From an uncultured Methanosarcinales archaeon (GTDB taxonomy: Archaea > Nanobdellota > Nanobdellia > Woesearchaeales > DSVV01): a DNA stretch of 64,000 nt. The notes beneath the pieces were generated by a model. The model did not search any database. It had not been told where the DNA came from and was given only the letters and a program-made list of their open reading frames with translations. Each line of letters starts with the position of its first letter. Position 1 is the stretch's first letter. Location: assembly GCA_964469935.1 (NCBI GenBank), contig CAYXZQ010000002.1:319-64318 (forward strand). The letters are read 5' to 3'. Positions 6,846 through 50,776 of the stretch are shown here, piece after piece. Both the position numbers and the translations under genes were made by a program.

Positions 6846-6859
6846 ATGCCATCATCGCC

Positions 6860-11351: not shown

Positions 11352-11385
11352 TATTGCTAAGTCAGAGTCCGTTTTCTGTCCCGCT

Positions 11386-13812: not shown

Positions 13813-13813
13813 T

Positions 13814-31191: not shown

Positions 31192-34100
31192 TTATTTAGC
31201 GTCGATGAGCTTGACTATCTCGTAGCCGTAGGCGGTCTGAAACGGCTTTGAAACGTCTCCTACCTGCAGGCTGAAGACCTGGTCCTCGAATGCCTTCGGC
31301 ATGACCCCCCTTCCGAACCATCCCAGGTTGCACCTGACTGTCTCGTCGCTGCATTCTGAATACTGCTGAGCCAGCTCATCGAAATTGTCAGGGGTTATCA
31401 TGCCGTATATCTTGTCTGCAAGGGCCGATGCCTGCTCATCCGTCCTGTTTGAAGTGCTTATGAGTATATGTTCCACCTTTGCAAGGGTCTTCTCCTGGAT
31501 AGGGTCCTGTGTCGTGTTGCCGGGGGAAACTGCCTGCGAAGTGTCCGTGGTTGCCTGCTCTGTCTGCGATGAGGCAGTGTCGACAGCTGGGGCCTGGCTG
31601 ACGCTTGCATTCCTTCCTGCCCAGTCGACCTTCCACGTGATAATCTTCGCTCCGGTGATGTCCCTTACATTGTTGAAGGAGTCGAAATGGGTGAGTCCCG
31701 CACCCTCGAAATAGAACAGCCTCGTGAACATGCTTCCCGCAAGGTCAGCGTCCATCAGGACCGACTGGTAGGTCCCGCCGGACTCCACGATGGCTGCACC
31801 TAGCGGCCTTCCGTCCTGGGACGTGATGTAGTTGCCTGCGTACTGCTTGACCCTGAACTGCCCGTACTTGTCAATGAATGATATTGCCCTGACATTGAGC
31901 GACGTCCCCTGTACTGACGCCTCTTCGGTCGAGAGGTCGAACTGGAGGCCGTTGCTGCACGAGACTGTGTTATCGCTCACCGTGCACGCTGTGAGATCTC
32001 CTGCATAGCTCGGCCACGGCGCGATCCACTGGTCCGGGTCCGTGGTCTTTATTTGGTTGTAGATGCTGAGGGCTGCAGTGCTGTTCAGGCCAAAATTGTC
32101 CTCAAGGTATGAGACTCCGTCTATCTGGTTCTTGTTGTACACCTTGTTGTACTGCTCGGCTCTCGTGAAATTCCATGCGCCGAAATGCGCCCATACCCCC
32201 GACTTGCCGACCATGTCTTCGCTGGTTATGAAATAGTCTTCGGGCGGGCTGCAGTGGGTGTACTGCAACACGTCCTCTGCCTGCGCGTCTGTAAGGCCTT
32301 TTGAGAGCAGGACGCTCTTTGCAGATGCCCTGTCGAGCACGATTATCTGGTATATCGTATCTATTGTCTTCAGTGAGTCGTTGTCCATGTACGGGAGCAG
32401 TGTGTCGAAGCCCGTGTTGGAGCCGCAGTCGAGGTATCTCAGTATCCCCACTGATTCAGTCTCGTTCCATGTGAGCATGAGCTTGCCCAGCCAGTGGGCT
32501 GCGGGGTTGTTCTGCCTCCCTCCGTCAAGGGTCACCCTCCTGTCTCCGATGGCTGCGAACCAATGGCCGAAGTCCCACCATGAATTGATGATGGCGTCAG
32601 GCTTGGACTGGTCCTTTATCTTGGTCAGCGAGGAATACCAGCTGTCGTCCATCGTTGGCACCTCGTTGAGGGCCGTGGTCTTTGCAGCCGATACAATGTT
32701 GATGGGAAAGAACATGAGCGCGCAGAAGATGGCGATGATTGCGCCGTAGGCGAATATCTTGTTCACCGTAAGCTCCTTTGATATCCATTCCGAGACCTCG
32801 GTGGTGACGATACCGGCTGTTATCCCGCAGGCGATAGAATATGCCGGGACCAGGAGAAGGATGAACCTGACTCCTTTTGAGCTTGCATATATCGTCGAGG
32901 CGAACCAGATGGCAAGTATCAATGAATATCTTATGTCCAGCTCTGTTCCCACGACCATTGTGTACAGGATGTATCCAGCGATAGGCAGAAATATTAGCAC
33001 TGCATAAAGCAGCTGGCTCTTGACCGCGCCCTGTATTATTATTATGAACAGGTACCAAACAGCGCTTATGGCGAGGAAATAGAGGCTGTCCTTCTTTTCG
33101 GATTTGAGATTGCCGAGAGGGAGCACAAGGCCTATGAGAGCGATGAAGTACCATATCTTGCTCCCGAGGCTGATCTGGCTGATCGTCGAGTTGAGCGTGG
33201 CAGGATTCAGCTCGGCCACTGTCGTGTACACGTTCGGCCATATCTTCTGGACTCCCACCTGCTTGAGCTGGGTGAATCCTATGGTGCCCTGGAAGAAGTT
33301 TATGAAATCCCCCCATGATTTGATGAGGGTCACGAACAACGCTGACAGGATGAAGAATGCGGCTGTTATGAGGAGCGCGTTCTTAAGCCTCTCGATCGAA
33401 AGCATTTTTTTCGGATTTTTGAAGATTGCCTTGCGGTTCATTATCCCGTGGTATGCTATGATGCCGAGGAGCATCACGATTACGAAATCAAAGATGAAGT
33501 ACCACGCGGTCCACGCGAAGCTGAACAGCCCCACGCAGAAGGCCGCAAGCCCTGCAAGTATGATGGTCTTTGTCCTGCTCCTGCTGTTGAGGGCCTCGAG
33601 AAGGAGCCATGTTATCATTAGAGGGAAGAAGACGTTGTAGGCGTCGGTGTCTGAGAACCCGCCTATGGTCCTTGAAAGCAATGCAGGGTGGATGGCTATC
33701 AGGACACCTGCGATGAACCCGCCGAAATCACCGGCTATCCTTCTCGTTATGAAAAATGCCGGGATGATTATCAGAGTCCCGAAGATGAGCGGCGTGAAGA
33801 ACACCACGTACATGAGGTCGACGTTGGGATTGAATAGTGCTGCAATCCTGTACATGACATATTGCACCAGGACATGGAAGTGCACGATTCTCTTGTCAGT
33901 GCCCTTGCCCATCGGCTGGCCTGCGAGGACCTTCGTGTCATGATAATACCCGTCAGGGCTCTGGTAGTCCCCTTCAAAGCCGTGGTCGATGACGTCCTCT
34001 GTCATCCTGTAATAATAGTACGGGTCTATGGCAAGAAGATACGTGTGGCCGTAATCATTCTGGAACCTCGACCTGAAATATTCCGAGTTCTGGCTTATGA

Positions 34101-34452
34101 CCTGGGAGATATCTACGTTCTGGCCCTGGATGTTGATCTGTCCTGTCTGGAGTATCTGGCTGAACTGGTCATTGACTATCTGGTTCTTGTTGGTGTCGGG
34201 GAGATTAGGATACTGTGTGGAGACCTGGCTCTTTATTGTCGACTTGATATTGTTGTAGATGGTGTTCTGGGCCCACTGGTCCGTTATCGGCAGGTAAACC
34301 GGCATGGCCCTCAGGTAAATGCTCAGGATGATGGGGATCAGGATCAGTATTACTGTTATGGATTTCTTCATCAGGGCCTTGTTTGAGAAAAACCCTTTCA
34401 GCTTCTTCAGATCAAGGCTCAGTTCCTCTTCCTTCTCCTTACCCTTGGACAA
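31192..34452 (-). CDS. aglB: STT3/AglB-family oligosaccharyltransferase fused to a C-terminal parvulin-type peptidyl-prolyl isomerase domain (1086 aa).
   Basis: EL1 motif 'AIDPYYYYR' and 'SWWDFGHW' (WWDYG variant). A Ser/Thr/Gln-rich linker follows. The C-terminus 'EHILIS...LGWFGRGVMPKAFEDQVFSLQVGDVSKPFQTAYGYEIVKL' aligns with PpiC/parvulin. Confidence 0.8.
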   Translation of the reverse strand: MSKGKEKEEELSLDLKKLKGFFSNKALMKKSITVILILIPIILSIYLRAMPVYLPITDQWAQNTIYNNIKSTIKSQVSTQYPNLPDTNKNQIVNDQFSQILQTGQINIQGQNVDISQVISQNSEYFRSRFQNDYGHTYLLAIDPYYYYRMTEDVIDHGFEGDYQSPDGYYHDTKVLAGQPMGKGTDKRIVHFHVLVQYVMYRIAALFNPNVDLMYVVFFTPLIFGTLIIIPAFFITRRIAGDFGGFIAGVLIAIHPALLSRTIGGFSDTDAYNVFFPLMITWLLLEALNSRSRTKTIILAGLAAFCVGLFSFAWTAWYFIFDFVIVMLLGIIAYHGIMNRKAIFKNPKKMLSIERLKNALLITAAFFILSALFVTLIKSWGDFINFFQGTIGFTQLKQVGVQKIWPNVYTTVAELNPATLNSTISQISLGSKIWYFIALIGLVLPLGNLKSEKKDSLYFLAISAVWYLFIIIIQGAVKSQLLYAVLIFLPIAGYILYTMVVGTELDIRYSLILAIWFASTIYASSKGVRFILLLVPAYSIACGITAGIVTTEVSEWISKELTVNKIFAYGAIIAIFCALMFFPINIVSAAKTTALNEVPTMDDSWYSSLTKIKDQSKPDAIINSWWDFGHWFAAIGDRRVTLDGGRQNNPAAHWLGKLMLTWNETESVGILRYLDCGSNTGFDTLLPYMDNDSLKTIDTIYQIIVLDRASAKSVLLSKGLTDAQAEDVLQYTHCSPPEDYFITSEDMVGKSGVWAHFGAWNFTRAEQYNKVYNKNQIDGVSYLEDNFGLNSTAALSIYNQIKTTDPDQWIAPWPSYAGDLTACTVSDNTVSCSNGLQFDLSTEEASVQGTSLNVRAISFIDKYGQFRVKQYAGNYITSQDGRPLGAAIVESGGTYQSVLMDADLAGSMFTRLFYFEGAGLTHFDSFNNVRDITGAKIITWKVDWAGRNASVSQAPAVDTASSQTEQATTDTSQAVSPGNTTQDPIQEKTLAKVEHILISTSNRTDEQASALADKIYGMITPDNFDELAQQYSECSDETVRCNLGWFGRGVMPKAFEDQVFSLQVGDVSKPFQTAYGYEIVKLIDAK

Positions 34453-36485: not shown

Positions 36486-37472
36486 TTATTCTCTCCAGCT
36501 GACCTCGACCTCGTCAGTCCTCTCGTAAGGCCTTATCGCCAGGTCTTTGTCTGATTTCCCTTTCATGCATTTGTGCTTCAGGAGTCCCAGCCATGCAATC
36601 ATCGCGCCATTGTCGACAAGGAACTCATTTTTTGGGACAAGGCATTTCGCACCCCTGTCTTTGCACATTAGCTTAGCCATCTCCTGGAGGCGGATGTTGC
36701 ATGCCACACCTCCGCCCAGGAGGAGCTCCTTTTTGCCCGTATGCGCCATGGCCCTCTCGGAAACCTCGATAAGCATGGCAAAGACGGTCTCCTGGGCAGA
36801 ATAAGCCAGGTCTTCCTTCCTGAACCTCCCTGAACTTATCTTCTGTTTGAGGTTTGTCAGAAGCCCGCCGAACGAGGTATCCATGCCCTTGACAACGTAC
36901 GGCAGCTCGACGTACCTTTTCCCTTTGAGCCCGAGCTCGTATATCTTCGGCCCGCCGGGAAACCCGAGGCCGAGCTCCCTGGCAAATGAGTCAAGGAAAT
37001 TGCCGATCCCGATGTCCAGGGTCTCGCCGAATATCCTGTACCTCCTCCCTTCATATGCGATGACCTGGGTGTTTGCCCCTGAGACATAGAGAAGGACCGG
37101 GTCTTTTGCAGGGAAAAGCATGTTGCCTATCTCAAGATGGGCGATGCAGTGGTTGACCCCTACTATGGGCTTTTTGTGTATCGCATGGATCGACCTTGCT
37201 GCCATGGCGCCAATGCGGAGGGCATGTCCAAGCCCGGGCCCCTGGGAGAAAGATACCAGGTCGATGTCTGAGATTTTCATTCCTGCATCGGAAAGCGCAT
37301 CCTTTATGACGATATTGAATACATCCACATGGTGCTCTGAAACCCTGTTCGGTATCATGCCGCCTTTCTTGGTGGTATAGCTGTCCGTGACATTGGCAAG
37401 GACTTTCCCTTCGTCATCCACGATGCCTGCACCGAATGTGTGGGCTGTGGACTCGATCCCGAGGCAAATCAT
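36486..37472 (-). CDS. kae1: tRNA N6-adenosine threonylcarbamoyltransferase, archaeal Kae1 type.
   Basis: 'MICLGIESTAHTFGAGIV' is the archaeal Kae1 N-terminus with two His. 'SFSQGPGLGHALRIGA' is present. The start is taken at MICLG. The 64-aa upstream extension is rejected. Confidence 0.8.
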   Translation of the reverse strand: MICLGIESTAHTFGAGIVDDEGKVLANVTDSYTTKKGGMIPNRVSEHHVDVFNIVIKDALSDAGMKISDIDLVSFSQGPGLGHALRIGAMAARSIHAIHKKPIVGVNHCIAHLEIGNMLFPAKDPVLLYVSGANTQVIAYEGRRYRIFGETLDIGIGNFLDSFARELGLGFPGGPKIYELGLKGKRYVELPYVVKGMDTSFGGLLTNLKQKISSGRFRKEDLAYSAQETVFAMLIEVSERAMAHTGKKELLLGGGVACNIRLQEMAKLMCKDRGAKCLVPKNEFLVDNGAMIAWLGLLKHKCMKGKSDKDLAIRPYERTDEVEVSWRE

Positions 37473-37556
37473 TGTCGACTGGAAAAAACCGGAATTAAAA
37501 ACATTTTCGATGCACCATCCACAACCTTTATTAACTGTACAAGGATTACTGGACTT

Positions 37557-39473
37557 ATGGCAGACCCCGAGCTTGAGAACCTCAAAAAACAGATACTCGA
37601 ATATAACCCGAAGGCCGACATTGCGCTTGTCGAGAAGGCGTACAAGTACGCGAAGATAGCCCACGAGGGCCAGGTGAGGGAGTCAGGCGAGCCTTATTTC
37701 AACCATCCCATCGGGATTGCTAGGATACTCATAGGGCTCAAGGTTCAGTCGACGACGATATGCGGCGCGCTTCTCCATGACGTCGTCGAGGAATCGAAGG
37801 TCAGCCTCAAGAAGGTGAAGGACGAATTCGGCCCCGAGATAGCCTCTCTCGTTGAGGGCGTCACGAAGATAGACAAGGTCCATTTCGAGAGCAAGCAGGA
37901 CTACACAGCAGAGAATCTCAGGAAGGTGCTGCTCGCGACTGCAAAGGACATAAGGATAATGCTCATAAAGCTTGCCGACAGGCTGCACAACATGCGGACC
38001 CTTAAATCCCTGAGGGAGGACAAGCAGAAGAGGATTGCAGAGGAGACCCTGAACATATATGCGCCCATAGCCCATAAGCTTGGCGTCTGGCACATAAAAG
38101 GAGAGCTTGAGGACCTCTCGCTCCGGTACCTTGACCCCGAGGCGTACCAGATGCTCAGGGACAGGATAAACGAGAAGCGCGAAGAGCGCGAAAAGAAGAC
38201 AAAGGAGTTCATAAGGACCATAAAGAAGAAGCTCAGGGCCCATGACATCGAGGCAGAGGTCAACGGCAGGGCCAAGTACTTCTACAGCATATACAAGAAG
38301 ATGAAGAAGAAGAACGTGGACTTCAGCGAGATATACGACCTGATTGCCATAAGGATAATAACAAAGAGCATCCCTGACTGCTATGCCGCCCTGGGCATAC
38401 TCCACGACACCTGGAAGCCCATTCCCAAGAAATTCAAGGACTACATAGCCACCCCCAAGGCGAACGGCTACCAGAGCCTGCACACAGCGCTTGTCGGGAG
38501 CCACGGCAAGATACTCGAGGTGCAGATAAGGACAGAGGAGATGCACCAGATCGCAGAGGATGGAATCGCGGCTCACTGGAGGTACAAGGGCACAGAGAGG
38601 GACAAGCAGTTCGACAGGAAGATATCATGGATAAAGCAGGTGCTCGACTGGAGGCAGTCGGCAAAGGATGCAGAGGATTTCATGGAGACCCTCAAGATTG
38701 ACCTCTTCGAGAAGGAGATAATAGTATTCACGCCCAAGGGCGACCCGATATCCCTGCCGGAGCACTCGACTCCCGTGGATTTCGCATATGAGATTCATAC
38801 GAACATCGGCAACCACTGCTCAAAGGCGCTGGTGAACGAGAAGCTGGTCACGCTTGACACAGAGCTCATGCCAGGCGATGTCATCGAGATAGTTACGATG
38901 AAGAATGCAAAGCCATCGAGGCAGTGGCTCAAGTTCGTCAAGACCAGCAAGGCCAAGGGCAAGATAAGGGCCATACTGAACATCGAGAAGGAGCATGACC
39001 CGAAGACCAGGAAGGAGGAGGAGCTCCCTGAAAATCGGGCGAAGATGATAGATATCATCGGCAAGGACGTGCCGATAAAGATATCCAAATGCTGCGATCC
39101 CAGGCCGTATGATTATATCGAGGGATTTTATACAAAAGACGGGAAGATAACTGTCCACAAGAAAGGCTGTCCCAATGTCCATTCCCTTGACCAGAACAAG
39201 AAGGCTGTCGTTCACTGGAAAAAGGAATCAGGGGACAGGTTCAAGGAATTCAAGATCATTGCTCAGGATAGGGTGGGGATGATAGCTGAAATACTCAACT
39301 TCCTCGTCGCCTTAAAGCTCAATGTGGAGAAGCTCAACACCAGCACGACAAAGCATGGCAGGTTCATGCTGAACCTGGGAGTCTCTTTGGATAAGGAAGA
39401 GACAGTTGCCGAACTCATAGCAAAGCTCAAGGAGATAAAGGGCGTCTTCGATGTCATGGAGTTCAAGGGCTAG
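37557..39473 (+). CDS. Full-length RelA/SpoT homolog with HD hydrolase, (p)ppGpp synthetase, TGS and ACT domains.
   Basis: HD domain: 'HEGQVRESGEPYFNHPIGIA...LLHDVVE'. Synthetase: 'FYSIYKKM...DLIAIRII...DCYAALGILHDTWKPIPKKFKDYIATPKANGYQSLHT...EVQIRTEEMH...AAHWRYK'. TGS: 'IIVFTPKGDPISLPEHSTPVDFAYEIHT'. There is a C-terminal ACT-like 'IIAQDRVGMIAEI'. Start MADPELENL. Confidence 0.8.
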   Translation: MADPELENLKKQILEYNPKADIALVEKAYKYAKIAHEGQVRESGEPYFNHPIGIARILIGLKVQSTTICGALLHDVVEESKVSLKKVKDEFGPEIASLVEGVTKIDKVHFESKQDYTAENLRKVLLATAKDIRIMLIKLADRLHNMRTLKSLREDKQKRIAEETLNIYAPIAHKLGVWHIKGELEDLSLRYLDPEAYQMLRDRINEKREEREKKTKEFIRTIKKKLRAHDIEAEVNGRAKYFYSIYKKMKKKNVDFSEIYDLIAIRIITKSIPDCYAALGILHDTWKPIPKKFKDYIATPKANGYQSLHTALVGSHGKILEVQIRTEEMHQIAEDGIAAHWRYKGTERDKQFDRKISWIKQVLDWRQSAKDAEDFMETLKIDLFEKEIIVFTPKGDPISLPEHSTPVDFAYEIHTNIGNHCSKALVNEKLVTLDTELMPGDVIEIVTMKNAKPSRQWLKFVKTSKAKGKIRAILNIEKEHDPKTRKEEELPENRAKMIDIIGKDVPIKISKCCDPRPYDYIEGFYTKDGKITVHKKGCPNVHSLDQNKKAVVHWKKESGDRFKEFKIIAQDRVGMIAEILNFLVALKLNVEKLNTSTTKHGRFMLNLGVSLDKEETVAELIAKLKEIKGVFDVMEFKG

Positions 39474-40504
39474 ATAAGCCTTCTTGCAAGCAGGAGCAGG
39501 CTAGGGTGCCTCAGGACAAGCCTTGGCAGGAGCTTTGCAGCCTCATCCCTGCCGTACCTGGAAAAAGCTGTCTTCTCGTCCTTGAGGACCCTTACAAGCC
39601 TGTCATAATCCTTGTCGCTGAACCTGCTGAGCACCTTTCTTATCAGGAGATGCGCGTGCAGCTCTTTGCCTGCTGCCCTGCGCCATCGCTTCTCGTAGTC
39701 CTGCCTGCTGATTATCGAGCCTGCAAGGGCGTGGGCGCATGCTAGGCCCGGGACGATTCCGCCGCCTGTCGATGCCTTTACCTGTCCTGCAGCATCCCCT
39801 ACTATGTAGATGTTTCCCTTCTGTGTCGTCAGTTTCGGGTCATATAGAGGTATCATCCCGGCCTGATAGCCTTCGATCTTCCTGATTTTTAGTCTTTTGA
39901 CGAGTTTCTGAAAAAGAGGCCCGGTATTCCTGTACGATGCGCATCCTATCCTTGCAGTGCTGCTGTCCTCCGGCACTACCCAGGCGAAGAAATCCGGTGC
40001 AACGCTTCCGACATACGCCTTGAAAACCCCTGGCTCGAACTCGCCTCTTACAGTAGCCTGCTTGCCTACCAGAAACGCGGTCTTTTTCCCCGGGTTGAGC
40101 ATGACCCTGACGAAGCTGCCCGGGCCGTCTGCGCCGATGGTTATGCTTCTCGGGTCTATCCTGCTGACCCTCCTGCCGAGAAATATCCTAGCACCCGCAT
40201 CCCTTGCCAAGTCAGCCAGGCTCCTGTCAAAGGCCGCACGGTCGATCACTATGTCATCCACAGGGAGCACGGCTCTCTCATTCGCTGAAATTATCTCGGC
40301 CTTCCTTATCCTGTTCACTGCCACACCTTTTTTTAAGCCAGCATATCTCGTGATGCCTGATGTGACTATGCCTGTGCACTGCACAGGAGACCCTATCTCC
40401 CTATGCTCCTCGTACACCCTGACCCTCTTTCCTGCCTTTGCGAGGGCTTCAGCAGCATAGAGCCCTGCAGGACCGGCGCCTATTATGTTTATCATAGTAA
40501 TCAT
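39470..40504 (-). CDS. Geranylgeranyl reductase family FAD-dependent oxidoreductase.
   Basis: 'IIGAGPAGLYAAEALAKAGKRVRVYEE' (FAD GxGxxG). 'CTGIVTS' matches the GGR family. It is 344 aa. Confidence 0.65.
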   Translation of the reverse strand: MITMINIIGAGPAGLYAAEALAKAGKRVRVYEEHREIGSPVQCTGIVTSGITRYAGLKKGVAVNRIRKAEIISANERAVLPVDDIVIDRAAFDRSLADLARDAGARIFLGRRVSRIDPRSITIGADGPGSFVRVMLNPGKKTAFLVGKQATVRGEFEPGVFKAYVGSVAPDFFAWVVPEDSSTARIGCASYRNTGPLFQKLVKRLKIRKIEGYQAGMIPLYDPKLTTQKGNIYIVGDAAGQVKASTGGGIVPGLACAHALAGSIISRQDYEKRWRRAAGKELHAHLLIRKVLSRFSDKDYDRLVRVLKDEKTAFSRYGRDEAAKLLPRLVLRHPSLLLLARRLI

Positions 40505-40694: not shown

Positions 40695-42005
40695 ATGAAG
40701 TATGTGAAACTGATAATCGTGATGGCACTGGTATTCACTTTGACAGCAGTGAGCCTGGCAAGCGCTTTGCCGGTTACTATTGACAAGGTCAAGATCGACG
40801 GCGATACAATACTGCCGACCAGCGCTGATTTCACCAGGTCTCTTGACAGGGACAATTCTTTCGACATCAAGGTCGAGGTGACGGCCCAGCAGGATGTGAA
40901 GGATGCCCAGATAGAGGTCTATCTCAGGGGCTACGACCATCCGGACCTGATCCAGGACATATCGGATGTATTCAATATGAAGGCCAACAGGACATATGTC
41001 AAGACCTTCACGCTGACATTCCCATACAAGCTGGACAAGGACCAGTACAAGCTGAGGGTAAGGGTCGAGAACCGCGACGGCGACTCTACTGAGCAGAATT
41101 ACGAGCTCGGCATAGAATCCGAGAGGCATGACATGATAATCAAGGACGTCCTGTTCTCACCATCCGATTCTGTCGAGGCAGGCAGGTCTCTTCTGACATC
41201 GATAAGGCTTGAGAACACTGGCATGACTGACCCAGAAGAGGGTGTGAAAGTCATGATAAAAATCCCGTCTCTGGGCATCTCAGCAGCCGACTACATCGAC
41301 AAGATAGATGAGGATGAGTCGACGACCTCTGAAGAGCTCTATCTCAGGATTCCCGAGTGCACAAAACCAGGGACCTATGACGCTGTCATAACTGCGACAT
41401 ACCATGATGGGGACAAGACCGCTTCAGTGGATAAGCAGGTGAAGATTACAGACGGCGATCTCTGCACTTCGGGCCAGCAGCCCACGACTGAGCCTGCAAC
41501 GCCCAAGACCATAATCACGGTCGGGCCGACAGCCCAGGATGTAACCCAGGGCCAGGGCGGAGTCATATACCCGCTTACGATATCCAATGCAGGGACAGCA
41601 GCAAAGACCTATGTGATAACCGCTGAGGGCTATGCTGACTGGGCTGACGTGAGCATGAACCCGGCAAACATCGTCGTGCTTCAGCCGGGAGAGGCAAAAG
41701 TGCTATATGTCTACCTCTCCGCGCATCAGGATGCTTCAGTAGGCCAGCATATGTTCATGATAAGTGTCGCTTCAGGCACAGAGACCCTCAAGCAGTTCTC
41801 GCTGACAGCAAATGTTGTACAGGGACAGCAGCAGACTACGACGACCACGACAGATCTCGGCGGCATCAAGAAGGTGCTTGAGATAGGTCTCGTGGTGCTT
41901 GTTGTGCTTCTGGTCATACTGGGACTGATAATCGGTTTCAGCAGGCTCAGGGGAAGCGACGAGGACATTGAGGACGACGAAGGCAAAAGTGAGACATATT
42001 ATTGA
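40695..42005 (+). CDS. Secreted surface protein with a signal peptide, CARDB/Ig-like repeats, a Thr-rich stalk and a C-terminal TM anchor.
   Basis: N-terminal 'MKYVKLIIVMALVFTLTAVSLASA'. Thr-run 'QQQTTTTTTD'. C-terminal hydrophobic 'VLEIGLVVLVVLLVILGLIIGF' followed by an acidic tail. Confidence 0.55.
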   Translation: MKYVKLIIVMALVFTLTAVSLASALPVTIDKVKIDGDTILPTSADFTRSLDRDNSFDIKVEVTAQQDVKDAQIEVYLRGYDHPDLIQDISDVFNMKANRTYVKTFTLTFPYKLDKDQYKLRVRVENRDGDSTEQNYELGIESERHDMIIKDVLFSPSDSVEAGRSLLTSIRLENTGMTDPEEGVKVMIKIPSLGISAADYIDKIDEDESTTSEELYLRIPECTKPGTYDAVITATYHDGDKTASVDKQVKITDGDLCTSGQQPTTEPATPKTIITVGPTAQDVTQGQGGVIYPLTISNAGTAAKTYVITAEGYADWADVSMNPANIVVLQPGEAKVLYVYLSAHQDASVGQHMFMISVASGTETLKQFSLTANVVQGQQQTTTTTTDLGGIKKVLEIGLVVLVVLLVILGLIIGFSRLRGSDEDIEDDEGKSETYY

Positions 42006-44218
42006 TTTTTTTCATTTACTTTCTCTTTGTCTTTAGTTTCTTGTACTGGAGCCCGGTGTCGCAGATGAGCCTTAAGAAAAGATACGCCTCGTTGATATTC
42101 TCATTGATATTGATTCTTGTATTCTTCTCAGCAGTTTCAGTTGCGACAGCTGGGGACTTCACCGCTTCGTCGAACCATGGGAGAATCACGCTCTGCAGGG
42201 GCGACATGTACCAGGACACTGTCACTGTCACCAGCACGGACCAGGCACCTGGGGCTTTTTCAGTATCGCCCTCCGAGAATTGGGCGCAGGTCGTCCCCCA
42301 GGGTTTCATCCTCGGGCCGGCAGGTGCGCAGGATGTTGTAGATTTCATCAGGCCCCCTCTGCAGGCAGGAACATATGAGCTCAGGACGACCATATCGTCC
42401 GGGACAGTAACAAAGGTCCTGACGCAGACAATAGAGGTCAGGGACTGCGAGAACACGAAGGTCCAGGTATTCCAGCAGGAAGCCACGATCTGCCCGTGCA
42501 CTCCCGCGCTGTACATATTCAACATAACCAATACAGGGACCTTCACCGATACCTATGACCTGGGCATCGATGCTGAACCGACATTCTACACCCTGAGCGA
42601 GAATCCGGTCGTCGTCAGACCCGGCAGGTCCAGGGCGGTCTATGCGTATTTCAACTTTCCCTGCAGCCAGTACGGCAGGGCGAGCATGCATTTCATCACA
42701 GAGGCAAGGCTTTCGGGCGAGAGGACAGAGACCGGCTTTAATATCGACATCAGTAGGGGATGTTACGATTACAGCCTGGATGCAGGGGATGCGTTAAATC
42801 TCAGCACAAACAAGACTTCGGCCAAGTTCGTCCCCTCTGCAAATGCAAAGTACAGCCTCTGTTACGGGACTGATTACGAGATACCTGTCAGGGTCAGGAA
42901 CACCGCGAATGTTAGCAACATATTCAGGTTGTCATCAGACCTCACGATCGACGGGAATAAAATGGAGATGCCTTCAGGGACGACTGCATACACGTATGTC
43001 CTTGTCCAGGGCATGGAGCCCGGATTCTATAACCGTATGATTAATTCAGTGTCCCTCAGGGGCAATATCGTCAAGAGCCTGCCCTTGGCGATAAACATAA
43101 GCCCGTGCGGGAATGCCAGCCTGTTGCAAGGACCCTCTGCGCAGTTCAGCGGGCTGAGAATAGCACTCTTTGTGCTTCTTGCTGTTTTGATTGTGCTTAT
43201 TGTCCTGTTTGCATTGATCTTCCCCAGGGCGAAGAGATGGCTCTGGAAAAGGGAGCAGAAAAGGCTGGCAGATGAAGGGTTGCAAGGCAGGGCAAGAAAG
43301 TTCCTTGCCGTGCATAAGAGACCGGTGACCGCCGTCATTGTCATACTGCTCCTTGTCCTTGTCACGATCGCTTCATATTACCTGCTGAGAAACCTGGGAA
43401 TAGACATGGTCGGGCTGGAATGGGGCATTCTAGGATCGATGTTCGCATTCGCTTCGCAGCATATGCTGTATGTGATTCTTGATATCGTGCTCCTTGCGAT
43501 AATCATCGCCTGCATCCTCTGGTTGCCGAAGCTGCTTGCCATGATGCAGAGAAGATGGAAGGAGAAGAGAGAAAGGGCGGACATCGTCCTTGAGAAGTAT
43601 CCGAAGGAGAGAAGCAGCAGCATGTGGATGTTTGTCGTTGTAATTGTCGTTGTGGTCTTCTTCCTATTGTCCTCGCTATGCTTCTTCACGACAGTCTGCA
43701 AAAATGCCGGCCTGAACATAGAGATAACGCATCCCGCGAACACGACCAACCAGACCCAGCTCAATGAGACTGCTGGTTATATCGTCGAGAATTCCACTGT
43801 CTACATATGGAACAAGAATACTGTAAAGGAGATTGACCTGTCAAGATACATAATCAACCAGGACAATGTTACGCTCCAGTACATATTCACCCCTGTAGAG
43901 AACATGACCGTGCAGATATCCGATCAGGGAATCGTGACACTTACTCCCGACAGGGGCTGGTTCGGCCACAGGGTGATGAACTTCATAATCGACGACGGAA
44001 GGGGGAACAGGGTGATAAGCCCTGATATAGACCTGTACGTTCTCGACGTCAATAGGACCTTTGCAGACCGGCTCACTGATTTCCTCGCTGTATATGTCAA
44101 TTACATCATAATCGGGCTCCTTTTCATTGTCATCGTCGTCATACTTCTGATATTGTTCACCAAGAAGCCGGGCAGGAAGAAAAGGATCCTCGTCAGGCGA
44201 AAGGGCCGGGACAGCTGA
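42002..44218 (+). CDS. Large polytopic surface/membrane protein (738 aa) with Cys-containing extracellular segments and many N-x-S/T sequons.
   Basis: N-terminal TM, then a roughly 330-aa extracellular region, then several TM helices, a second sequon-dense extracellular region ('NTTNQTQLNETAGYIVENSTVY') and a final TM. It overlaps the previous gene by 4 nt. Confidence 0.45.
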   Translation: MIFFIYFLFVFSFLYWSPVSQMSLKKRYASLIFSLILILVFFSAVSVATAGDFTASSNHGRITLCRGDMYQDTVTVTSTDQAPGAFSVSPSENWAQVVPQGFILGPAGAQDVVDFIRPPLQAGTYELRTTISSGTVTKVLTQTIEVRDCENTKVQVFQQEATICPCTPALYIFNITNTGTFTDTYDLGIDAEPTFYTLSENPVVVRPGRSRAVYAYFNFPCSQYGRASMHFITEARLSGERTETGFNIDISRGCYDYSLDAGDALNLSTNKTSAKFVPSANAKYSLCYGTDYEIPVRVRNTANVSNIFRLSSDLTIDGNKMEMPSGTTAYTYVLVQGMEPGFYNRMINSVSLRGNIVKSLPLAINISPCGNASLLQGPSAQFSGLRIALFVLLAVLIVLIVLFALIFPRAKRWLWKREQKRLADEGLQGRARKFLAVHKRPVTAVIVILLLVLVTIASYYLLRNLGIDMVGLEWGILGSMFAFASQHMLYVILDIVLLAIIIACILWLPKLLAMMQRRWKEKRERADIVLEKYPKERSSSMWMFVVVIVVVVFFLLSSLCFFTTVCKNAGLNIEITHPANTTNQTQLNETAGYIVENSTVYIWNKNTVKEIDLSRYIINQDNVTLQYIFTPVENMTVQISDQGIVTLTPDRGWFGHRVMNFIIDDGRGNRVISPDIDLYVLDVNRTFADRLTDFLAVYVNYIIIGLLFIVIVVILLILFTKKPGRKKRILVRRKGRDS

Positions 44219-44277
44219 AAAGCTTAAAGGGAAAAATTAATAAGGAGACAGCCAGTTCTGGATTTTTAGCCGTTTTT

Positions 44278-44427
44278 GGGGGCGTAGTTTAACCTGGCTA
44301 GAATAACTGGCTCCAGTGCTCTGGAGCGATGAGGGGAAGCGATTTCCCGATGACTTTAGGTCTGGTATGGCTCTTTTTTAAGGGCGAGAGATACCAGTTG
44401 ATCTGGGTTCAAATCCCAGCGTCCCCA
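44278..44427 (+). tRNA. tRNA-Trp (anticodon CCA) interrupted by a ~76-nt intron at the canonical 37/38 position (about 44317-44392).
   Basis: Acceptor GGGGGCG pairs with CGUCCCC (one G-U pair). U8 is present. D-arm GUUU/AACCUGGCUA/GAAU. Anticodon stem ACUGG/CCAGU. The anticodon loop C-U-C-C-A-G|intron|A is the canonical tRNA-Trp loop CUCCAGA. The T-arm is CUGGG-UUCAAAU-CCCAG and the discriminator is A. Confidence 0.6.
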
Positions 44428-44510
44428 TTTCACTTCGTTCAATGGGTCCCCGGGATTTGAAATACTCAAAAATCAAAGATTTTTGGCACCGCTCGAGCAA
44501 GCTCTCGTGG

Positions 44511-44526
44511 AATCCCAGCGTCCCCA
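44511..44526 (+). repeat. Exact 16-nt direct repeat of the tRNA-Trp 3' end ('aatcccagcgtcccca'), 84 nt downstream of the gene. Between the two copies lies an inverted tRNA-3'-like fragment at 44444-44461. Possible att-site remnant.
   Basis: 44412-44427 and 44511-44526 are identical. 44444-44461 'gggtccccgggatttgaa' is the reverse complement of a T-loop/acceptor-like 'ttcaaatcccggggaccc'. Confidence 0.5.
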
Positions 44527-44576
44527 CTCATTTCATTCTATCTATAAAATGCATATCCAATAATTTTCAAATAATT

Positions 44577-46508
44577 CTAGAATCCGGGCGGTGAGTTGCC
44601 GTCGTCGCGTTTTTGAGGGGCCTGGGGCATCCTTTGCTGGAGTTTCCTGTGTATCCTGCTGGTTATGACCAGGTTGGAGATGTTGACGACGATGAGGAAC
44701 AGTATGACTGCAAGGTATATTATCTCGTTCGAATGGCTTCTTATGCCCGATATTATGGTTATGATGGGCGATGTGAATGCGCCGTCGACCTTGAGCGGGT
44801 CTAAACCCACGATGTATAGGTCAGTGACCCTGTATGGGCCTGTGCCGTTGACCTTGTACGAGAGGTCCCAGCTGTAGTTTGCAGGCGCTGTGGCGTCAGG
44901 CCCGAACTTCGGCCCGAGGGACGAGTTCATGGTCCCTTTCCATTGTATGTCCCACCTGTAGGACATGCCGTAATAGTCGCTTCCCGGGCTCCCGACCGAA
45001 AGGTTCGAGCAGCCGCTCCCTCCAAGTGCGCACGAGTAGTAAGATGGTGACATGTTCCAGATTCCGAAGTCGTTCGGGACAAAGTCGTACACAGTCACCT
45101 TCTCGAACTGCGGGGTCCAGCCGTTTCCGATATTCTCGACGTGTATCTTGACCTGGTACTGGTCCTCTCCTATGTTGGTTATGTTCTTGGCGATCTGGAG
45201 CCAGTAGCCGTGGACGACGTAGATGTACTTGAGGTATGTGTCATTGCCGCTGACGCTCATTGTGTAGTTTACGATCTGGCCGGACATGTCGGAAATCAGG
45301 TATTCCGGTTTCATCCAGACGATGGGCGGCGGATACGCCGAGCTTGAGCCGTCTGTGTAGTTGAATGTCCATACGTAGCTGGAGTTCCCCCATGGCTTTG
45401 TTATGTTTATCTCCTGGAGCGGCGAGCCTGTGAAATTTTTTCCCAAGAGCCCCCATAGGGTCCCGGCAGTCGTGTTTGTCGGGTCCTGGTTCTGCGTGAC
45501 CCATAGCGAAACCTTGTTGAGATTATAGGATATGTTCACGGGGACTGTCACCCTCGGCGTGATCTCCCAGGTCACATTATGGTTCTGCTCGTTGTCGCTC
45601 GGCTTGATTATCCGCTTGTCGAAGTCGAAATCGACCTGGGAGCTGGCGTTTATGTCGTCTATCGTCAGGTTCGAGAGCAGGGTGTTGACCACCAGGAATT
45701 CAACCCTCTCTTTGAGGGCAAGGTATGTGGCAGTGAACGGGACGCTCAGCGGAGCGGTCATATTGTACCTGATGCTTGTGTTCCTGTGCCATGCAATCGT
45801 CCCGCCGCTGGGTGCCCACCACCAGGAGACATTGGATGTCCCGTTCCCATGGACATTGGCAAAATCCTTGTATGGATACAGGTTATTGAGATAGAAGCTG
45901 AACTGTGTCGAATTCCATACCACGTCTGCGGCAGTCATCGAGATGTTTATGTTCGTTACGCTTACGTTTATCTGGTTGTCGTTTCTCACAGTCTGGTTGA
46001 TTGTCCATTCATGGCCTGAAAGCACCTTCCTGTCGAAACCGTGCTCGAAATTATAGTAGTTAGTTATGACGTTCACAGGCGGGTCGACGCCCATGCACGA
46101 TATATTGTACCTGAATAATGAATTATCGCCCTGTCTCAGTTCAGGTACAAACAGTATTATCTCTGTTCCTGGCTGGCCTGATGTCTGGTTGCCGAACTTT
46201 GTAGTGTTGTCCCAGGTGAAGTTTGTCGAAAGTCCGCCTGTGTTCCTGAATGACACATGTATGTCATAAATTGTCTCATTGTTCGGGTTTGTGATGTTCA
46301 CTGTTCCAAGGCTGTAGCACGATTTCTGCCATTCAGTGAGCGTGAAGTTCTCTGCAAAGCTTGTCTGCTGGAAGACCTGTTCTGTGATGGAGACATTGAT
46401 GTGAGTGCCGAAATCCGCGCTCACGTTGAAGAAGCACATGATGAAGAAGAGTATGGAGCAAAAGAATAGAACGAGCCTGCCCTTATTCCTCTTTTTTAGG
46501 GGATTCAT
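44577..46508 (-). CDS. S-layer-like surface glycoprotein candidate with a signal peptide, about 34 N-glycosylation sequons and a C-terminal TM anchor with a basic tail.
   Basis: N-terminal 'LVLFFCSILFFIMCFFNVSA'. N-x-S/T motifs counted by eye, for example 'NFTWDNTTKFGNQTSG' and 'NVSVTNINISMT'. C-terminal 'IIYLAVILFLIVVNISNLVI' followed by 'RIHRKLQQR'. A TATA-rich region lies upstream at 46509-46594. Confidence 0.6.
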   Translation of the reverse strand: MNPLKKRNKGRLVLFFCSILFFIMCFFNVSADFGTHINVSITEQVFQQTSFAENFTLTEWQKSCYSLGTVNITNPNNETIYDIHVSFRNTGGLSTNFTWDNTTKFGNQTSGQPGTEIILFVPELRQGDNSLFRYNISCMGVDPPVNVITNYYNFEHGFDRKVLSGHEWTINQTVRNDNQINVSVTNINISMTAADVVWNSTQFSFYLNNLYPYKDFANVHGNGTSNVSWWWAPSGGTIAWHRNTSIRYNMTAPLSVPFTATYLALKERVEFLVVNTLLSNLTIDDINASSQVDFDFDKRIIKPSDNEQNHNVTWEITPRVTVPVNISYNLNKVSLWVTQNQDPTNTTAGTLWGLLGKNFTGSPLQEINITKPWGNSSYVWTFNYTDGSSSAYPPPIVWMKPEYLISDMSGQIVNYTMSVSGNDTYLKYIYVVHGYWLQIAKNITNIGEDQYQVKIHVENIGNGWTPQFEKVTVYDFVPNDFGIWNMSPSYYSCALGGSGCSNLSVGSPGSDYYGMSYRWDIQWKGTMNSSLGPKFGPDATAPANYSWDLSYKVNGTGPYRVTDLYIVGLDPLKVDGAFTSPIITIISGIRSHSNEIIYLAVILFLIVVNISNLVITSRIHRKLQQRMPQAPQKRDDGNSPPGF

Positions 46509-46594: not shown

Positions 46595-46936
46595 TCAGCT
46601 GATTCCAACCAAATCCCCTGTTTTCGATTTGGAACCTGATATTACGCCCTTTCTGGCTTCGATTACGTATTTTGCCTTGTTTTTCGACGTGTAGAAAGTA
46701 AACGGCAGGAAATTCTCCTTTAAGTCGACTATCTTCTTATCCCTGTCCAGGAAGATGACATCGATGGGAAAGAACACGAAGAACATGTGAAGGGATATTC
46801 TCCTCTCCTTCTCGAATATGAACAGGAGGCTCTTTTTGGGCGAGAACATGAGCCCCCTTGCCTTCTCGGGAACGCTCCTGCATTCGGTGAATTCCCCTGC
46901 GATGAGCTTTCCGCTTGTCAGATTCATTATCGCCAT
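46595..46936 (-). CDS. DUF192-family small protein.
   Basis: 113 aa. 'GLMF...LLFIF......ISLHM.FV.FPIDVIFLDRDKKIV' matches the COG1430/DUF192 pattern. Confidence 0.5.
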   Translation of the reverse strand: MAIMNLTSGKLIAGEFTECRSVPEKARGLMFSPKKSLLFIFEKERRISLHMFFVFFPIDVIFLDRDKKIVDLKENFLPFTFYTSKNKAKYVIEARKGVISGSKSKTGDLVGIS

Positions 46937-49383
46937 TTTACCAGGTAGGCGACTGTCCTCAGGGTCTCAGGTCGCGAATTGTCGGCGATGAGCCTGAAAT
47001 CATCAAGGCCATAGCCGTCGAGGACCATCAGCCTTATGTACGTGCTGTCAGCGATGTTCTTGTCGACCACGATCGCGTTGTATTTGTCGCTTCTTGGATA
47101 GATAACCATCGTGTATTCTGACTTGCTGTCATAGCTGAACCTGGTCAGGTTCCCGTCGATGAAGAACCAGAGCCCTGCCAGGTCGACATTGTTATGTCCC
47201 GTCCTAGAGTTGGCAGTGACTTGCGTGCTCCCGACACTGCATGTGAACGTATCATTATCCCTGCTGCAGTCGTAGGCTGTGAAGGCCTTGTAGGTCTTCT
47301 GCTCGTCGCTCGGCAGGTCGAAATCCCAGTATGCGTACTCCTGAACAGTATGGAAGCGGGTGAACATGTCGTCTGTCAGCGCGATATAGGTGACAGGGGC
47401 ATCACAGTGGGTGTATCTGGTGATCCGCCTGTCCTGATTGTTCTGGGCCAGGTATTCGTCAGCCTCTGTCTTGTTGAGCTTCAGGATGCTGTCAAGTACG
47501 CCAATCTTCCCGTTCATCGAGAGGTTGCCCTTCACAAGGCTGAGCGCCTTCTTCTCGCCGTTGCATGAAAGCATCCGGATGATGCCTGCGGAAAGGTTCT
47601 CGTCCGGTGTCATCAGGGCCTTGGCCATCCAGTAGGTCCTTGGCATGCTCGGAGCTGCCTTGAGAAGGACGTCCCTGTCAGACAATGCATAGAAGAAATG
47701 GCCTTTGTCCCACCAGGTGAATATCTTGGCATCAGGAGGGCTTACCTCCCCTATCTTCACGGCAGTGTTGTACAATGAGTCGTCCATCCTGGGCTTGATG
47801 CTCCTGACCGAGCTGTAGTCGGCCATGAACTGGCTCCCGATTATGAAGAGCAGAAGGGCTATGACCAGCACATAGGCAAGCGACCTGATGATGGTGTCCT
47901 TCTGGTCTATCCAATGGATGAATCTCGGTATCGAGTCAATTATCAAAAAAAGGCCGAACCCGAAAAGTATGCATATGTATGGGATGGAGAAAGGGAATAT
48001 CCTTATCGCCTTGAAAGCGGCGGGTATCATGATTGCTGCCGCTGTCAGTGCGAGCAATGGGCCGAAGGGTATGTCCTCCGAATCCGCAGCCCTCCAGAAT
48101 GTATAGGCAGCAGCCAGGAGCACTATCGCCAAAAATACCGGCCCTCCGAGCCTCGGGACCATGTCGCTGAAAGGGAGAGGCTGGAGCTCTGAGATTGATG
48201 AATAGCTGTCCGGCCATACCCCCTGCAGGCTGCCAGAGCCAAGATAAAGCTGTATCTTGGCAGGCATGAAGCCTATGAGAAACTTGAGTCCCAGCAGCAC
48301 TGCGATGACGATTATCAGGCAGACCAACACAAGATAAGCGATGCGCCCATTCGTTGTCTTGTCGGCTGTCAGCTTATTGAAGAGCCAGAGGCCGAGATAG
48401 ACAGCTGAGATGGCAGCAAGCAGGCCTATGACTATGTAATACCCTGTCCACGTGAACCTGAAGAGGAGAAGGAGCAGGACCAGTGATGCCCCTGCTATAA
48501 TCCTGTTCCTCAGCTTTTTCTGGAGAATCAGTTCAAGGAACACCCACGATATCGCGAGCATGAAGAATATGTTGATGGTATTGGTATCGCTCATCCCTGC
48601 AAGGCTGTACTTGAGGAATTCAGGGTGTATGGCAAAGGTTGCGGATGCGATTAAGCCTGCCAGGTCTCCTGCAATCCTCCTTGCAATGAAATATATAGGG
48701 AACATGGTCAATGCCACGAATATCAGCGGGATGTAGAAGCTTGTCGTCATCATTGACACGGTTTTGTTGAAAAGGGAGATGAAATTATGGAAGTAATACT
48801 CGAAGAAAGACAGGAAATCCTCGAGTTTCCCGTCCTTTGCGTTCTTGTAGTAGCTGTAGGGGTCTATGCCGTAGAGGTATATCTGCCCCTGCGGATCCCT
48901 GAAGCTGTCCCTGAGGCTTTCGGCCTTCTGGGCGATCTGCGCCTGGTACTGGTCTATCTTTTCCTTGACCTGCTGGTCTATGAGCTTGGTCTTCTGGTCA
49001 TCGCTGTAATAGGGGTACATCTGGTTGACGTCCTGTGTTATCTGCGGCCTGAATGTGGCGTCGGCAGACATCCTAGCCCAGTCATCCATGAGCGGGAGGC
49101 CTGCGTAATGCAGCCTTACGCCTACTGAGAGGATGATGGACAGGATGATGAAGATGACAGGGGCATATCTCCTGAACCAGGCAGGTGTCTTGAAGGCCTT
49201 GTGGTCTTCCCTTGCCTTCTTCTTTTTTGGACTGCGGGAATGTCTCTTCTTCACCTTCGGCTTTGGCTTCGGCTTATTCATCGCCTTTGACGCAATCTCC
49301 TGCTGCTTCTTCCTTATCATGTCTGCGCGCAGCTCGTTGCTGATGTCTGTGTCCCCTATGTTGTCCATGGGAAATGAAATCAT
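46927..49383 (-). CDS. aglB: Second STT3/AglB-family oligosaccharyltransferase paralog (818 aa) with a Lys/Pro-rich cytoplasmic N-terminus.
   Basis: EL1 'YGIDPYSYYK'. 'TWWDKGHFF' is a WWDYG variant. 13 or more TM helices plus a C-terminal soluble domain. The N-terminus reads 'KPKPKPKVKKRHSRSPKKKKARED'. Confidence 0.75.
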   Translation of the reverse strand: MISFPMDNIGDTDISNELRADMIRKKQQEIASKAMNKPKPKPKVKKRHSRSPKKKKAREDHKAFKTPAWFRRYAPVIFIILSIILSVGVRLHYAGLPLMDDWARMSADATFRPQITQDVNQMYPYYSDDQKTKLIDQQVKEKIDQYQAQIAQKAESLRDSFRDPQGQIYLYGIDPYSYYKNAKDGKLEDFLSFFEYYFHNFISLFNKTVSMMTTSFYIPLIFVALTMFPIYFIARRIAGDLAGLIASATFAIHPEFLKYSLAGMSDTNTINIFFMLAISWVFLELILQKKLRNRIIAGASLVLLLLLFRFTWTGYYIVIGLLAAISAVYLGLWLFNKLTADKTTNGRIAYLVLVCLIIVIAVLLGLKFLIGFMPAKIQLYLGSGSLQGVWPDSYSSISELQPLPFSDMVPRLGGPVFLAIVLLAAAYTFWRAADSEDIPFGPLLALTAAAIMIPAAFKAIRIFPFSIPYICILFGFGLFLIIDSIPRFIHWIDQKDTIIRSLAYVLVIALLLFIIGSQFMADYSSVRSIKPRMDDSLYNTAVKIGEVSPPDAKIFTWWDKGHFFYALSDRDVLLKAAPSMPRTYWMAKALMTPDENLSAGIIRMLSCNGEKKALSLVKGNLSMNGKIGVLDSILKLNKTEADEYLAQNNQDRRITRYTHCDAPVTYIALTDDMFTRFHTVQEYAYWDFDLPSDEQKTYKAFTAYDCSRDNDTFTCSVGSTQVTANSRTGHNNVDLAGLWFFIDGNLTRFSYDSKSEYTMVIYPRSDKYNAIVVDKNIADSTYIRLMVLDGYGLDDFRLIADNSRPETLRTVAYLVKWR

Positions 49384-50698: not shown

Positions 50699-50776
50699 GT
50701 CAAGGGTTCACGGAACCTATAGGGTTTATCCGTGCATTTCCGGAACTGCGAGAGCTGTACTGCTGATATCGATCTT

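Follow-up and report, generated by a model that had tools for sequence, protein, structure and literature searches.

Which proteins carry the glycans made by an archaeal glycosylation gene island? This question is raised by a stretch of 64,000 nucleotides (nt), hereafter the window, from an uncultured archaeon recorded under Methanosarcinales and placed by GTDB in the Woesearchaeales (GenBank assembly GCA_964469935.1, contig CAYXZQ010000002.1). Between two genes for the oligosaccharyltransferase AglB (AglB1 and AglB2) the window encodes three exported proteins, here called P1, P2, and P3. The window covers almost all of its contig and is largely an island of genes for glycan biosynthesis. The original prediction held that all three are rich in N-x-S/T sequons, are associated with a tRNA gene, and are likely targets of the glycosylation machinery. 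We recovered the open reading frames (ORFs), the tRNA gene, and both flanking AglB genes where that prediction had placed them (Table 1), and conclude that the segment is a conserved cluster of envelope genes from a member of the Woesearchaeota (DPANN/Nanobdellota). Very probably, P3 is an envelope protein with heavy N-glycosylation. We further consider it likely that it is the main N-glycan carrier, a Sec-exported protein with a transmembrane (TM) anchor and about one sequon per 16 residues, probably acting as an oligomer or in a complex.

Sequon load and architecture of P3

P3 contains 35 sequons (N-x-S/T, where x is not P) in 643 amino acids (aa), close to the approximately 34 originally counted, and the cluster NFTWDNTTKFGNQTSG singled out in that count lies at aa 96-111. 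The density is 5.44 per 100 aa, whereas the remaining 50 genes of the window reach at most 1.08, with a median of 0.40. The ectodomain of approximately 560 aa holds 33 of the 35 sequons; the other two are N28 in the signal peptide and N609 in the TM helix. Shuffling P3 20,000 times within its own composition gave 10.2 ± 2.8 sequons with a maximum of 22 (z = 8.9), and none of the shuffles reached 35. The reversed motif, [ST]-x-N, occurs 10 times, as expected from composition. An excess of sequons over the background of the window, as predicted, is therefore found for P3; it is not found for P1.

It is possible in principle that the sequons are unused, and that their excess results incidentally from beta strands whose composition is rich in Asn and Thr/Ser. 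P3 consists of 9.8% Asn and 17.1% Ser or Thr, and many sequons are of the N-hydrophobic-S/T type within strands, a pattern favored by alternating beta strands. However, composition accounts for only 10 of the 35 sequons, and 35 of the 63 Asn residues (56%) sit in sequons. The conserved sites of the family never have Pro at x, Ser and Thr interchange with the sequon kept, the same fold exists in sequon-free form, and two intact AglB genes flank the locus. We therefore regard unused sequons as very unlikely.

P1, P2, and P3 each have a signal peptide with n-, h-, and c-regions and an A-x-A-like cleavage site, as well as a C-terminal TM segment, as judged from hydropathy and inspection. The signal peptide of P3 is of the Sec type, with the n-region KKRNKGR followed by a hydrophobic core and the predicted VSA-DF junction, and a basic, cytoplasmic tail comes after the TM helix. 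The signal peptide, C-terminal anchor, and basic tail originally proposed for P3 are thus borne out by hydropathy, by inspection, and by the terminal helices of an AlphaFold2 model. The polar residues E595, Y598, N609, and N612 of the TM helix are invariant or nearly so. This suggests helix-helix contacts in the membrane, within either an oligomer or a complex.

The AlphaFold2 model of P3, built from an alignment of 82 sequences, has a predicted local distance difference test (pLDDT) value of 88.8 and a predicted template modeling (pTM) score of 0.70. An N-terminal helix corresponding to the signal peptide precedes an all-beta ectodomain and a long C-terminal helix. In the ectodomain, an immunoglobulin (Ig)-like domain at the N-terminus is followed by a bipartite beta-sandwich module in the center and a beta domain at the C-terminus. 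Most ectodomain sequons (25 of 33) overlap strands, and 20 of the 33 have a hydrophobic residue at x. Alternating strands would place the Asn and the Ser or Thr of such a sequon on the same, outward face.

Conservation of the sequons and of the locus

We identified 127 homologues of P3 in a collection of 5.8 billion proteins, and all that carry a name are hypothetical proteins from metagenome-assembled genomes (MAGs) of Woesearchaeota, Nanoarchaeota, or Nanobdellota. Precomputed matches assign to PF27408.1 (AF2028_C) an entry identical to P3 (P0001, 100% identity over 643 aa) and 114 of the 120 homologues listed. P3 is conserved at 35-86% identity throughout the clade. Among the 120 homologues listed sequon density ranges from 3.3 to 7.0 per 100 aa with a median of 5.6, approximately three times the expectation from their own composition. 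When 109 full-length members, as little as about 35% identical, were aligned, 25 sequon columns proved to be shared by at least 50% of the sequences and 14 by at least 80%. The Asn of these sites stays, while Ser and Thr replace each other at +2 (42% Ser and 44% Thr at position 199, 49% and 43% at position 414).

An exhaustive hidden Markov model search of 1.84 billion cluster representatives found only 152 clusters of the AF2028_C family. Its distant members reach another phylum (Ca. Pyrohabitans, Hydrothermarchaeota). These are mostly sequon-dense, yet only 32 of 169 sequon cells are common with P3. The alignments thus indicate that over long distances density is held while positions drift, and that within Woesearchaeota single sites are under purifying selection. 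Such selection would be expected for sites that are really glycosylated.

The best genomic match to P3 (86% identity) is found on a 1.84-Mb chromosome of an uncultured Woesearchaeota archaeon (OY970338.1). The locus is fully syntenic with that of the window, with genes for a RelA/SpoT protein, a geranylgeranyl reductase (39470-40504 in the window), P1, P2, the tRNA, P3, a DUF192 protein, and AglB2. Identity is 85% for P1, 72% for the DUF192 protein, 71% for the geranylgeranyl reductase, 68% for AglB2, and 62% for P2. The conservation of P3 and P1 argues for tight structural constraints and speaks against a role in antigenic variation or host specificity. This bears on the proposal that P3 serves an episymbiotic DPANN cell as an adhesin for host contact, with glycans that mediate or mask recognition. 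DPANN archaea generally depend on cell contact, and the neighboring P2 is fast-evolving and has Ig/cadherin-like matches. However, few proteins of the locus are as conserved as P3, which is unlike host-specificity determinants, and a genome of the size found in its closest relative is large for an obligate symbiont. We consider an adhesin unlikely.

We surveyed 55 loci encoding members of the family and looked for AglB within flanks of 8-10 kb. Two arrangements were found. In type A, seen in the window and in seven other clear loci, P3 is convergent with the co-directional pair P1-P2. The DUF192 gene lies directly upstream of P3 in five of these eight loci (the window and four others), and AglB2 is present in three (the window, L006, and L014), where AglB2, DUF192, and P3 are co-directional. 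One further locus (L020) was left out of the count, as it has only a weak P1 match. Type B accounts for approximately 40 of the 55 loci, including the most distant, and consists of a P3-like gene followed by two genes that we call N240 and N623. N240 encodes a protein of approximately 240 aa with a signal peptide, a C-terminal TM helix, and a median of 0 sequons, and N623 an anchored protein of approximately 620 aa with a DUF11/CLIPPER domain and a median of 1.85 sequons per 100 aa. Both types are clearly present in six genomes, including the complete OY970338.1. Adjacency to AglB is absent from most of the P3 family, and is therefore a trait of the sub-lineage formed by the window and its close relatives rather than of the family.

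The co-directional order AglB2-DUF192-P3 would fit a role for P3 as a ribophorin-like accessory subunit of the oligosaccharyltransferase. Ribophorin I also has a signal peptide, a beta-sandwich lumenal domain, and a single C-terminal TM helix, a topology that resembles P3. However, most of the family has no AglB next to it, and 33 conserved sequons fit a substrate rather than a subunit. With the adjacency not conserved and no structural matches to oligosaccharyltransferase subunits, we rejected this role as exceedingly improbable.

The type B operon raises the possibility that P3 is a subunit of an ancient archaeal membrane complex with a function other than glycan display, and that glycosylation in Woesearchaeota is a lineage-specific protective decoration. 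The three genes keep their order in the approximately 40 loci, and the ancestral third gene encodes a large exported protein, approximately 620 aa in Woesearchaeota. A distant locus (L056) encodes a sequon-free AF2028_C protein, then a homologue of N240 (HHalign 99.5%), then a protein that exceeds 1,684 aa and has 54 sequons; the P3-like/N240 pair is thus ancient, in a family that extends to Hydrothermarchaeota. The Ig-like N-terminal domain of P3 is homologous to the N-terminal domain of N623 (HHalign 98%). The existence of a sequon-free subclade implies that a core function survives without glycans, and type B loci are often found within a few kb of genes for a type IV pilus-like ATPase and platform proteins. 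However, the type A paralogue in the window has no N240 or N623 and is tied instead to P1, P2, and DUF192/AglB2, and we can name no function for the complex. We regard this proposal as possible, though tentative. This reading and that of P3 as the main N-glycan carrier are compatible.

Three further observations concern these loci. The N240 homologue of L056 has 4 sequons, and the sequon-bearing subunit differs between lineages. A pilus-like cluster with one T2SSE ATPase gene and two T2SSF platform genes is located a few kb from the family gene in two type B loci (L001 and L005) and one type A locus (L004), and the L001 region also encodes small proteins with pilin-like N-termini. P1 and P2 as diverged forms of N240 and N623 were ruled out (HHalign <10%).

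The reading of P3 as a heavily glycosylated protein has several points against it. In the approximately 40 type B loci the family is found in a different operon, with no AglB in the flanks. A subclade of AF2028_C (P0285, P0291, P0294, P0296, P0304, P0309, P0312; L056 6001-13755) has 0-2 sequons where 7-8 are expected, and glycans are accordingly not intrinsic to the function of the family. Signal peptides and TM segments were called by hydropathy and inspection, not with a trained predictor. We found nothing relevant in the literature on PF27408, AF2028, or PACE-CTERM. Finally, to our knowledge archaeal AglB never occupies every sequon, and the ones used cannot be predicted from sequence.

The sequon-free subclade also serves as a control. 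At the conserved Asn positions its members hold T, S, D, or G, none of 91 cells has a sequon, and the polar-hydrophobic-Thr pattern of the strands is often retained. The fold therefore needs no Asn at these sites. P3 is a likely glycosylation target because both density and positions of its sequons are conserved, because of this control, and because of its context of AglB2, DUF192, and glycan genes.

Neighboring genes and the glycan island

P1 contains a single sequon, compared with 1.6 expected from shuffles, and its family is sequon-poor throughout (median 0.23 per 100 aa, n = 120). The description of P1 as sequon-rich with a Thr-rich stalk thus fails in its first part. The stalk exists as a TTTTTT run before the TM helix; however, among the C-termini of the 25 best-scoring homologues the closest keeps only TTTT and the other 24 have none, and we rejected it as a feature of the family.

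The closest described relative of P1 is NCBIfam NF033506 ("PACE-CTERM-PROT, putative S-layer protein"), a model for Pacearchaeota and Woesearchaeota. P1 matches positions 253-618 of its 627 with E = 3.1e-31 and 108.8 bits, 1.2 bits short of the curated cut-off (110). It aligns through to the end of the model, and the conserved C-terminal TM helix and tail that characterize the family are present, whereas the first approximately 250 model positions are missing. P1 thus appears to be a close relative or a short form of NF033506, not a formal member, and the S-layer role of that family is itself predicted. Several P1 orthologues (53-58% identity) bear the NCBI name "putative S-layer protein". In the 25 homologues the TM helix is followed by a tail ending in E/QTYY, and the C-terminus LEIGLVVLVVLLVILGLIIGFSRL-acidic-SETYY is almost invariant. 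The family tail, GLIIGFSRL[KR]G-acidic stretch-[SG][EQ]TYY (41850-42005 in the window; P0121-P0145), is nearly invariant in homologues that are otherwise 55-85% identical. Such a motif could direct sorting or serve for docking in the cytoplasm.

These matches bear on whether P3 is itself a lattice-forming S-layer glycoprotein with its own TM anchor, like those of Halobacterium and Methanothermus. P3 fits in its architecture, from signal peptide and beta-sandwich ectodomain to C-terminal TM helix and basic tail, and in its extreme and conserved sequon load. Its high sequence conservation suggests assembly constraints, and the conserved polar TM residues are compatible with oligomerization. However, P3 is unlike any described S-layer family in Pfam, NCBIfam, or the PDB sequences, and it is P1 that matches the curated S-layer model. 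The ancestral operon also encodes two other membrane-anchored proteins, which points to a membrane complex more than to a self-sufficient lattice protein, and several genomes have two paralogues. The original description of P3 as typical of archaeal S-layer glycoproteins therefore stands for its architecture but not for its family membership. We consider an S-layer role for P3 doubtful, and P1 would be the better lattice candidate.

P2 probably starts at ATG 42065 (MSLKKRY, 717 aa, as in the public record) rather than at TTG 42002. Its signal peptide is followed by a first ectodomain, four TM helices, a second ectodomain with a weak Ig/cadherin-like match, a C-terminal TM helix, and a basic tail. 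It contains 13 sequons compared with 4.9 expected (P = 4.5e-4, shuffles), and all 13 lie in the two ectodomains, which the positive-inside rule places outside. Orthologues have the same topology, with a sequon density of 1.3-3.7 per 100 aa and nearly every sequon in an outside segment. P2 evolves fast, with 4 word-index matches. This polytopic membrane protein may thus be a glycoprotein. The moderate excess agrees with the original prediction for P2, but the Thr-rich stalk that was also predicted was not found. The proposal of three likely glycosylation targets is thereby reduced to P3 and, more weakly, P2, with P1 set aside.

The tRNA gene, a tRNA-Trp(CCA), is located between the convergent genes for P2 and P3 and has the same place in the orthologous locus L006. 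Default ARAGORN, with introns off, misses it, whereas aragorn -i and Rfam recover it. Its intron contains two GATGA motifs recalling box C/C' elements, and no Rfam match to a small RNA came up to the gathering threshold. The last 16 nt of the gene, AATCCCAGCGTCCCCA (44412-44427), recur exactly 99 nt downstream (44511-44526), where 0 occurrences are expected by chance. An integrative element may have left this repeat as an att-like scar.

Table 1. Features of the locus. Positions are those of the window; the pilus-like clusters are given under the handles of their loci.
Feature	Position	Strand	Description and basis
P3	44577..46508	-	643-aa type I membrane protein, PF27408 (AF2028_C); ORF, sequon statistics, precomputed Pfam match, AlphaFold model
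P3 signal peptide (aa 1-31)	46416..46508	-	Predicted cleavage between VSA and DF; sequence inspection, hydrophobic segment aa 8-34, model helix 9-25
P3 C-terminal TM helix (aa 592-620)	44649..44735	-	Hydropathy, model helix 581-626, conserved columns
AT-rich intergenic stretch 5' of P3	46509..46594	-	TATA-like boxes TTTATATA and TTAATATATATATTAAA, possible own promoter of P3; sequence inspection
P1	40695..42005	+	436 aa; signal peptide, Ig-like FixG_C / NPCBM_assoc domains (Pfam), TM helix, acidic tail ending ETYY
P2	42065..44218	+	717-aa polytopic membrane protein; ORF from TTG 42002 is 738 aa
tRNA-Trp(CCA), 76-nt intron	44277..44428	+	aragorn -i; Rfam RF00005, 47.6 bits at 44278-44427
DUF192 gene	46595..46936	-	Directly upstream of P3, overlaps end of AglB2
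AglB2	46927..49383	-	STT3 PF02516, E = 6e-16; WWDKG at aa 557; synteny in L006, L014
AglB1	31192..34452	-	STT3 PF02516, E = 4e-42; WWDFG at aa 625; C-terminal PPIC-type prolyl isomerase domain
Type IV pilus-like clusters	L001 1218-6370 and 15761-17771; L004 753-4931; L005 339-6465		One T2SSE ATPase gene and two T2SSF platform genes

Both AglB proteins have the STT3 domain and the WWDxG motif, and of the genes in the window scanned against Pfam, most are associated with glycan synthesis or protein glycosylation. Genes for nonulosonic acid synthesis comprise two NeuB genes, a CMP-sugar cytidylyltransferase, a PseB-like dehydratase, a DegT aminotransferase, a GNAT protein, a HisH/HisF-like pair, and a UDP-GlcNAc 2-epimerase. 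The region 3132-14863 has a complete-looking pathway of the pseudaminic or legionaminic type, also with a formyltransferase-like protein and a PIG-L deacetylase. Deoxyhexose genes are represented by a GDP-mannose 4,6-dehydratase and an epimerase/reductase, and sulfation genes by an adenosine 5'-phosphosulfate (APS) kinase and a CysQ-like phosphatase. The kinase gene adjoins the inositol-monophosphatase/CysQ-like gene (50108-51571, minus strand), and the pair suggests a supply of 3'-phosphoadenosine 5'-phosphosulfate for sulfated glycans. Several glycosyltransferases of families GT2 and GT4, methyltransferases, an AsnB-like amidotransferase, GtrA, and PMT_2-like and LPG_synthase-like membrane proteins are also encoded. 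This content supports a reading in which the machinery lies next to its substrate, and the composition of the glycan is a prediction from the genes present.

P3 would leave the cell via Sec and remain anchored by its single C-terminal TM helix, with the all-beta ectodomain exposed outside. On the outer face of the membrane, most of the 33 sequons of the ectodomain would then receive lipid-linked glycans from AglB. The obvious candidate for P3 and P2 is AglB2, whose gene lies just upstream of that for P3, with AglB1 as a possible second enzyme. The glycans would be built by the surrounding island, with its nonulosonic acid, 6-deoxyhexose, sulfation, and methylation genes. The outcome would be a dense coat on P3, presumably an abundant protein, of roughly one glycan per 16 residues, and the polar residues of the TM helix are consistent with P3 acting as an oligomer or in a complex.

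Several other observations were made in the window. AglB1 ends in a parvulin/PPIC-type prolyl isomerase domain (aa 987-1085, E = 1e-19), and its neighbors encode a membrane-anchored protein with two GILT/DsbA thioredoxin modules and a protein with approximately 10 TM segments (29304-31187, minus strand, and 34636-36411, plus strand). Together the three genes look like a cluster for extracytoplasmic glycosylation, proline isomerization, and disulfide formation. A full-length RelA/SpoT homologue with HD_4, RelA_SpoT, TGS, and ACT domains is encoded at 37440-39473 (plus strand), with 91% and 71% identity in two related MAGs; long RelA/SpoT homologues are uncommon in Archaea. Between the sulfation genes and the glycosyltransferases is an ORF of 861 aa (51900-54485, plus strand) with no match in Pfam or NCBIfam and no predicted TM segment. 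Many TPA_asm MAG records that contain the family (L008, L011-L014, L016, and others) are titled "uncultured Methanosarcinales archaeon", and their proteins are 50-65% identical to those of Woesearchaeota, with which they have synteny in common. These titles look like mislabeled taxonomy.

Woesearchaeota are among the most widespread DPANN archaea. We know of no well-studied cultured representative. The P3 family is a concrete candidate for a component of their envelope, and the cell surface is the site of any host contact, virus attachment, or nutrient capture. This clade-wide family is set apart from the sequon-poor "putative S-layer" family encoded alongside it. Glycoproteomics and electron cryotomography gain defined targets, and cell sorting with lectins or click chemistry gains a handle; the island encodes nonulosonic acid synthesis.

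Comparison with known families, mu-homology domains, and S-layer glycoproteins

As a predicted archaeal N-glycosylated surface protein P3 is of a known kind, to which it adds a member from the uncharacterized family PF27408 with an unusual fold resemblance. The family is named after an uncharacterized protein of Archaeoglobus fulgidus, AF_2028. Like the rest of the family, P3 has a signal peptide, an ectodomain of approximately 550 aa, a C-terminal TM helix, and a basic tail. Members are usually encoded in an operon with an N240-like gene, whereas the P3 gene of the window is a derived paralogue that has lost its N240 and N623 partners. The sequon load ranges from 0 to 7 per 100 aa between lineages.

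The best fold matches of P3 were, unexpectedly, the mu-homology domains (MHDs) of eukaryotic adaptor complexes (Foldseek, E = 1e-9, target TM-score approximately 0.6-0.67). The P3 module has the bipartite beta-sandwich fold of the MHDs, whose members are the mu subunits of AP-1 to AP-5, the delta subunit of COPI, and the muniscins. However, sequence identity is only 8-13%. P3 has no match to the Pfam models for the domain (Adap_comp_sub / muHD) at E <= 0.01, and the profile of the P3 family matches no chain among the PDB sequences, even at E = 10. MHDs are cytosolic and bind cargo, whereas the P3 module is predicted to be extracellular, covered with sequons, and placed between a signal peptide and a TM anchor, a location that does not suggest an adaptor function. 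We found no literature on a mu homology domain in archaea. The similarity is thus a resemblance of fold in a predicted model, for which homology and convergence are both possible.

A bolder proposal is that the central module of AF2028_C is a true homologue of the MHD that predates eukaryotes and began in an archaeal membrane-anchored envelope complex, and, separately, that P3 is the principal coat protein of Woesearchaeota, with carbohydrate making up about half of its mass. We consider this quite improbable. If true, the MHD fold, until now treated as an invention of eukaryotic vesicle coats, would be pre-eukaryotic. As the principal coat protein, P3 would be the most densely N-glycosylated prokaryotic surface protein so far described, in a seeming non-thermophile.

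Sequence similarity of P3 to known S-layer families was not found in Pfam, in NCBIfam, or, even at E = 10, among PDB sequences. The likeness lies in the architecture. A C-terminal TM segment followed by a basic tail is also found in the euryarchaeal S-layer glycoproteins, namely the CSG of Halobacterium salinarum and Haloferax volcanii and SlgA of Methanothermus fervidus. Archaeal S-layer glycoproteins, including SlaA of Sulfolobus acidocaldarius, are like P3 Sec-exported and beta-rich with many N-x-S/T sites, though for P3 glycosylation by AglB is only predicted. The label "S-layer glycoprotein" would therefore refer, for P3, to architectural resemblance only. One metatranscriptome study places unspecified "S-layer protein genes" among the top-expressed genes of Woesearchaeota.

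The sequon load of P3 also differs from that of these proteins. SlaA is approximately 1,400 aa in length. The isolate name of the nearest relative of the window starts with MFD, which we take to denote a Danish environmental survey and thus, presumably, a non-thermal habitat. In haloarchaea, a Thr-rich stretch beside the TM segment is O-glycosylated (PMC4245038), and the TTTTTT run of P1 is in the corresponding position. The S-layer protein of Hfx. volcanii has 7 putative N-glycosylation sites (PMC4245038) and SlaA has 31 (PMC2948927), and the density of P3, with 35 sequons in 643 aa, is much above both. A high density of N-glycosylation sites has been proposed as an adaptation of thermophiles and thermoacidophiles (PMC4245038). 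The density of P3 in a seeming non-thermophile would challenge this idea.

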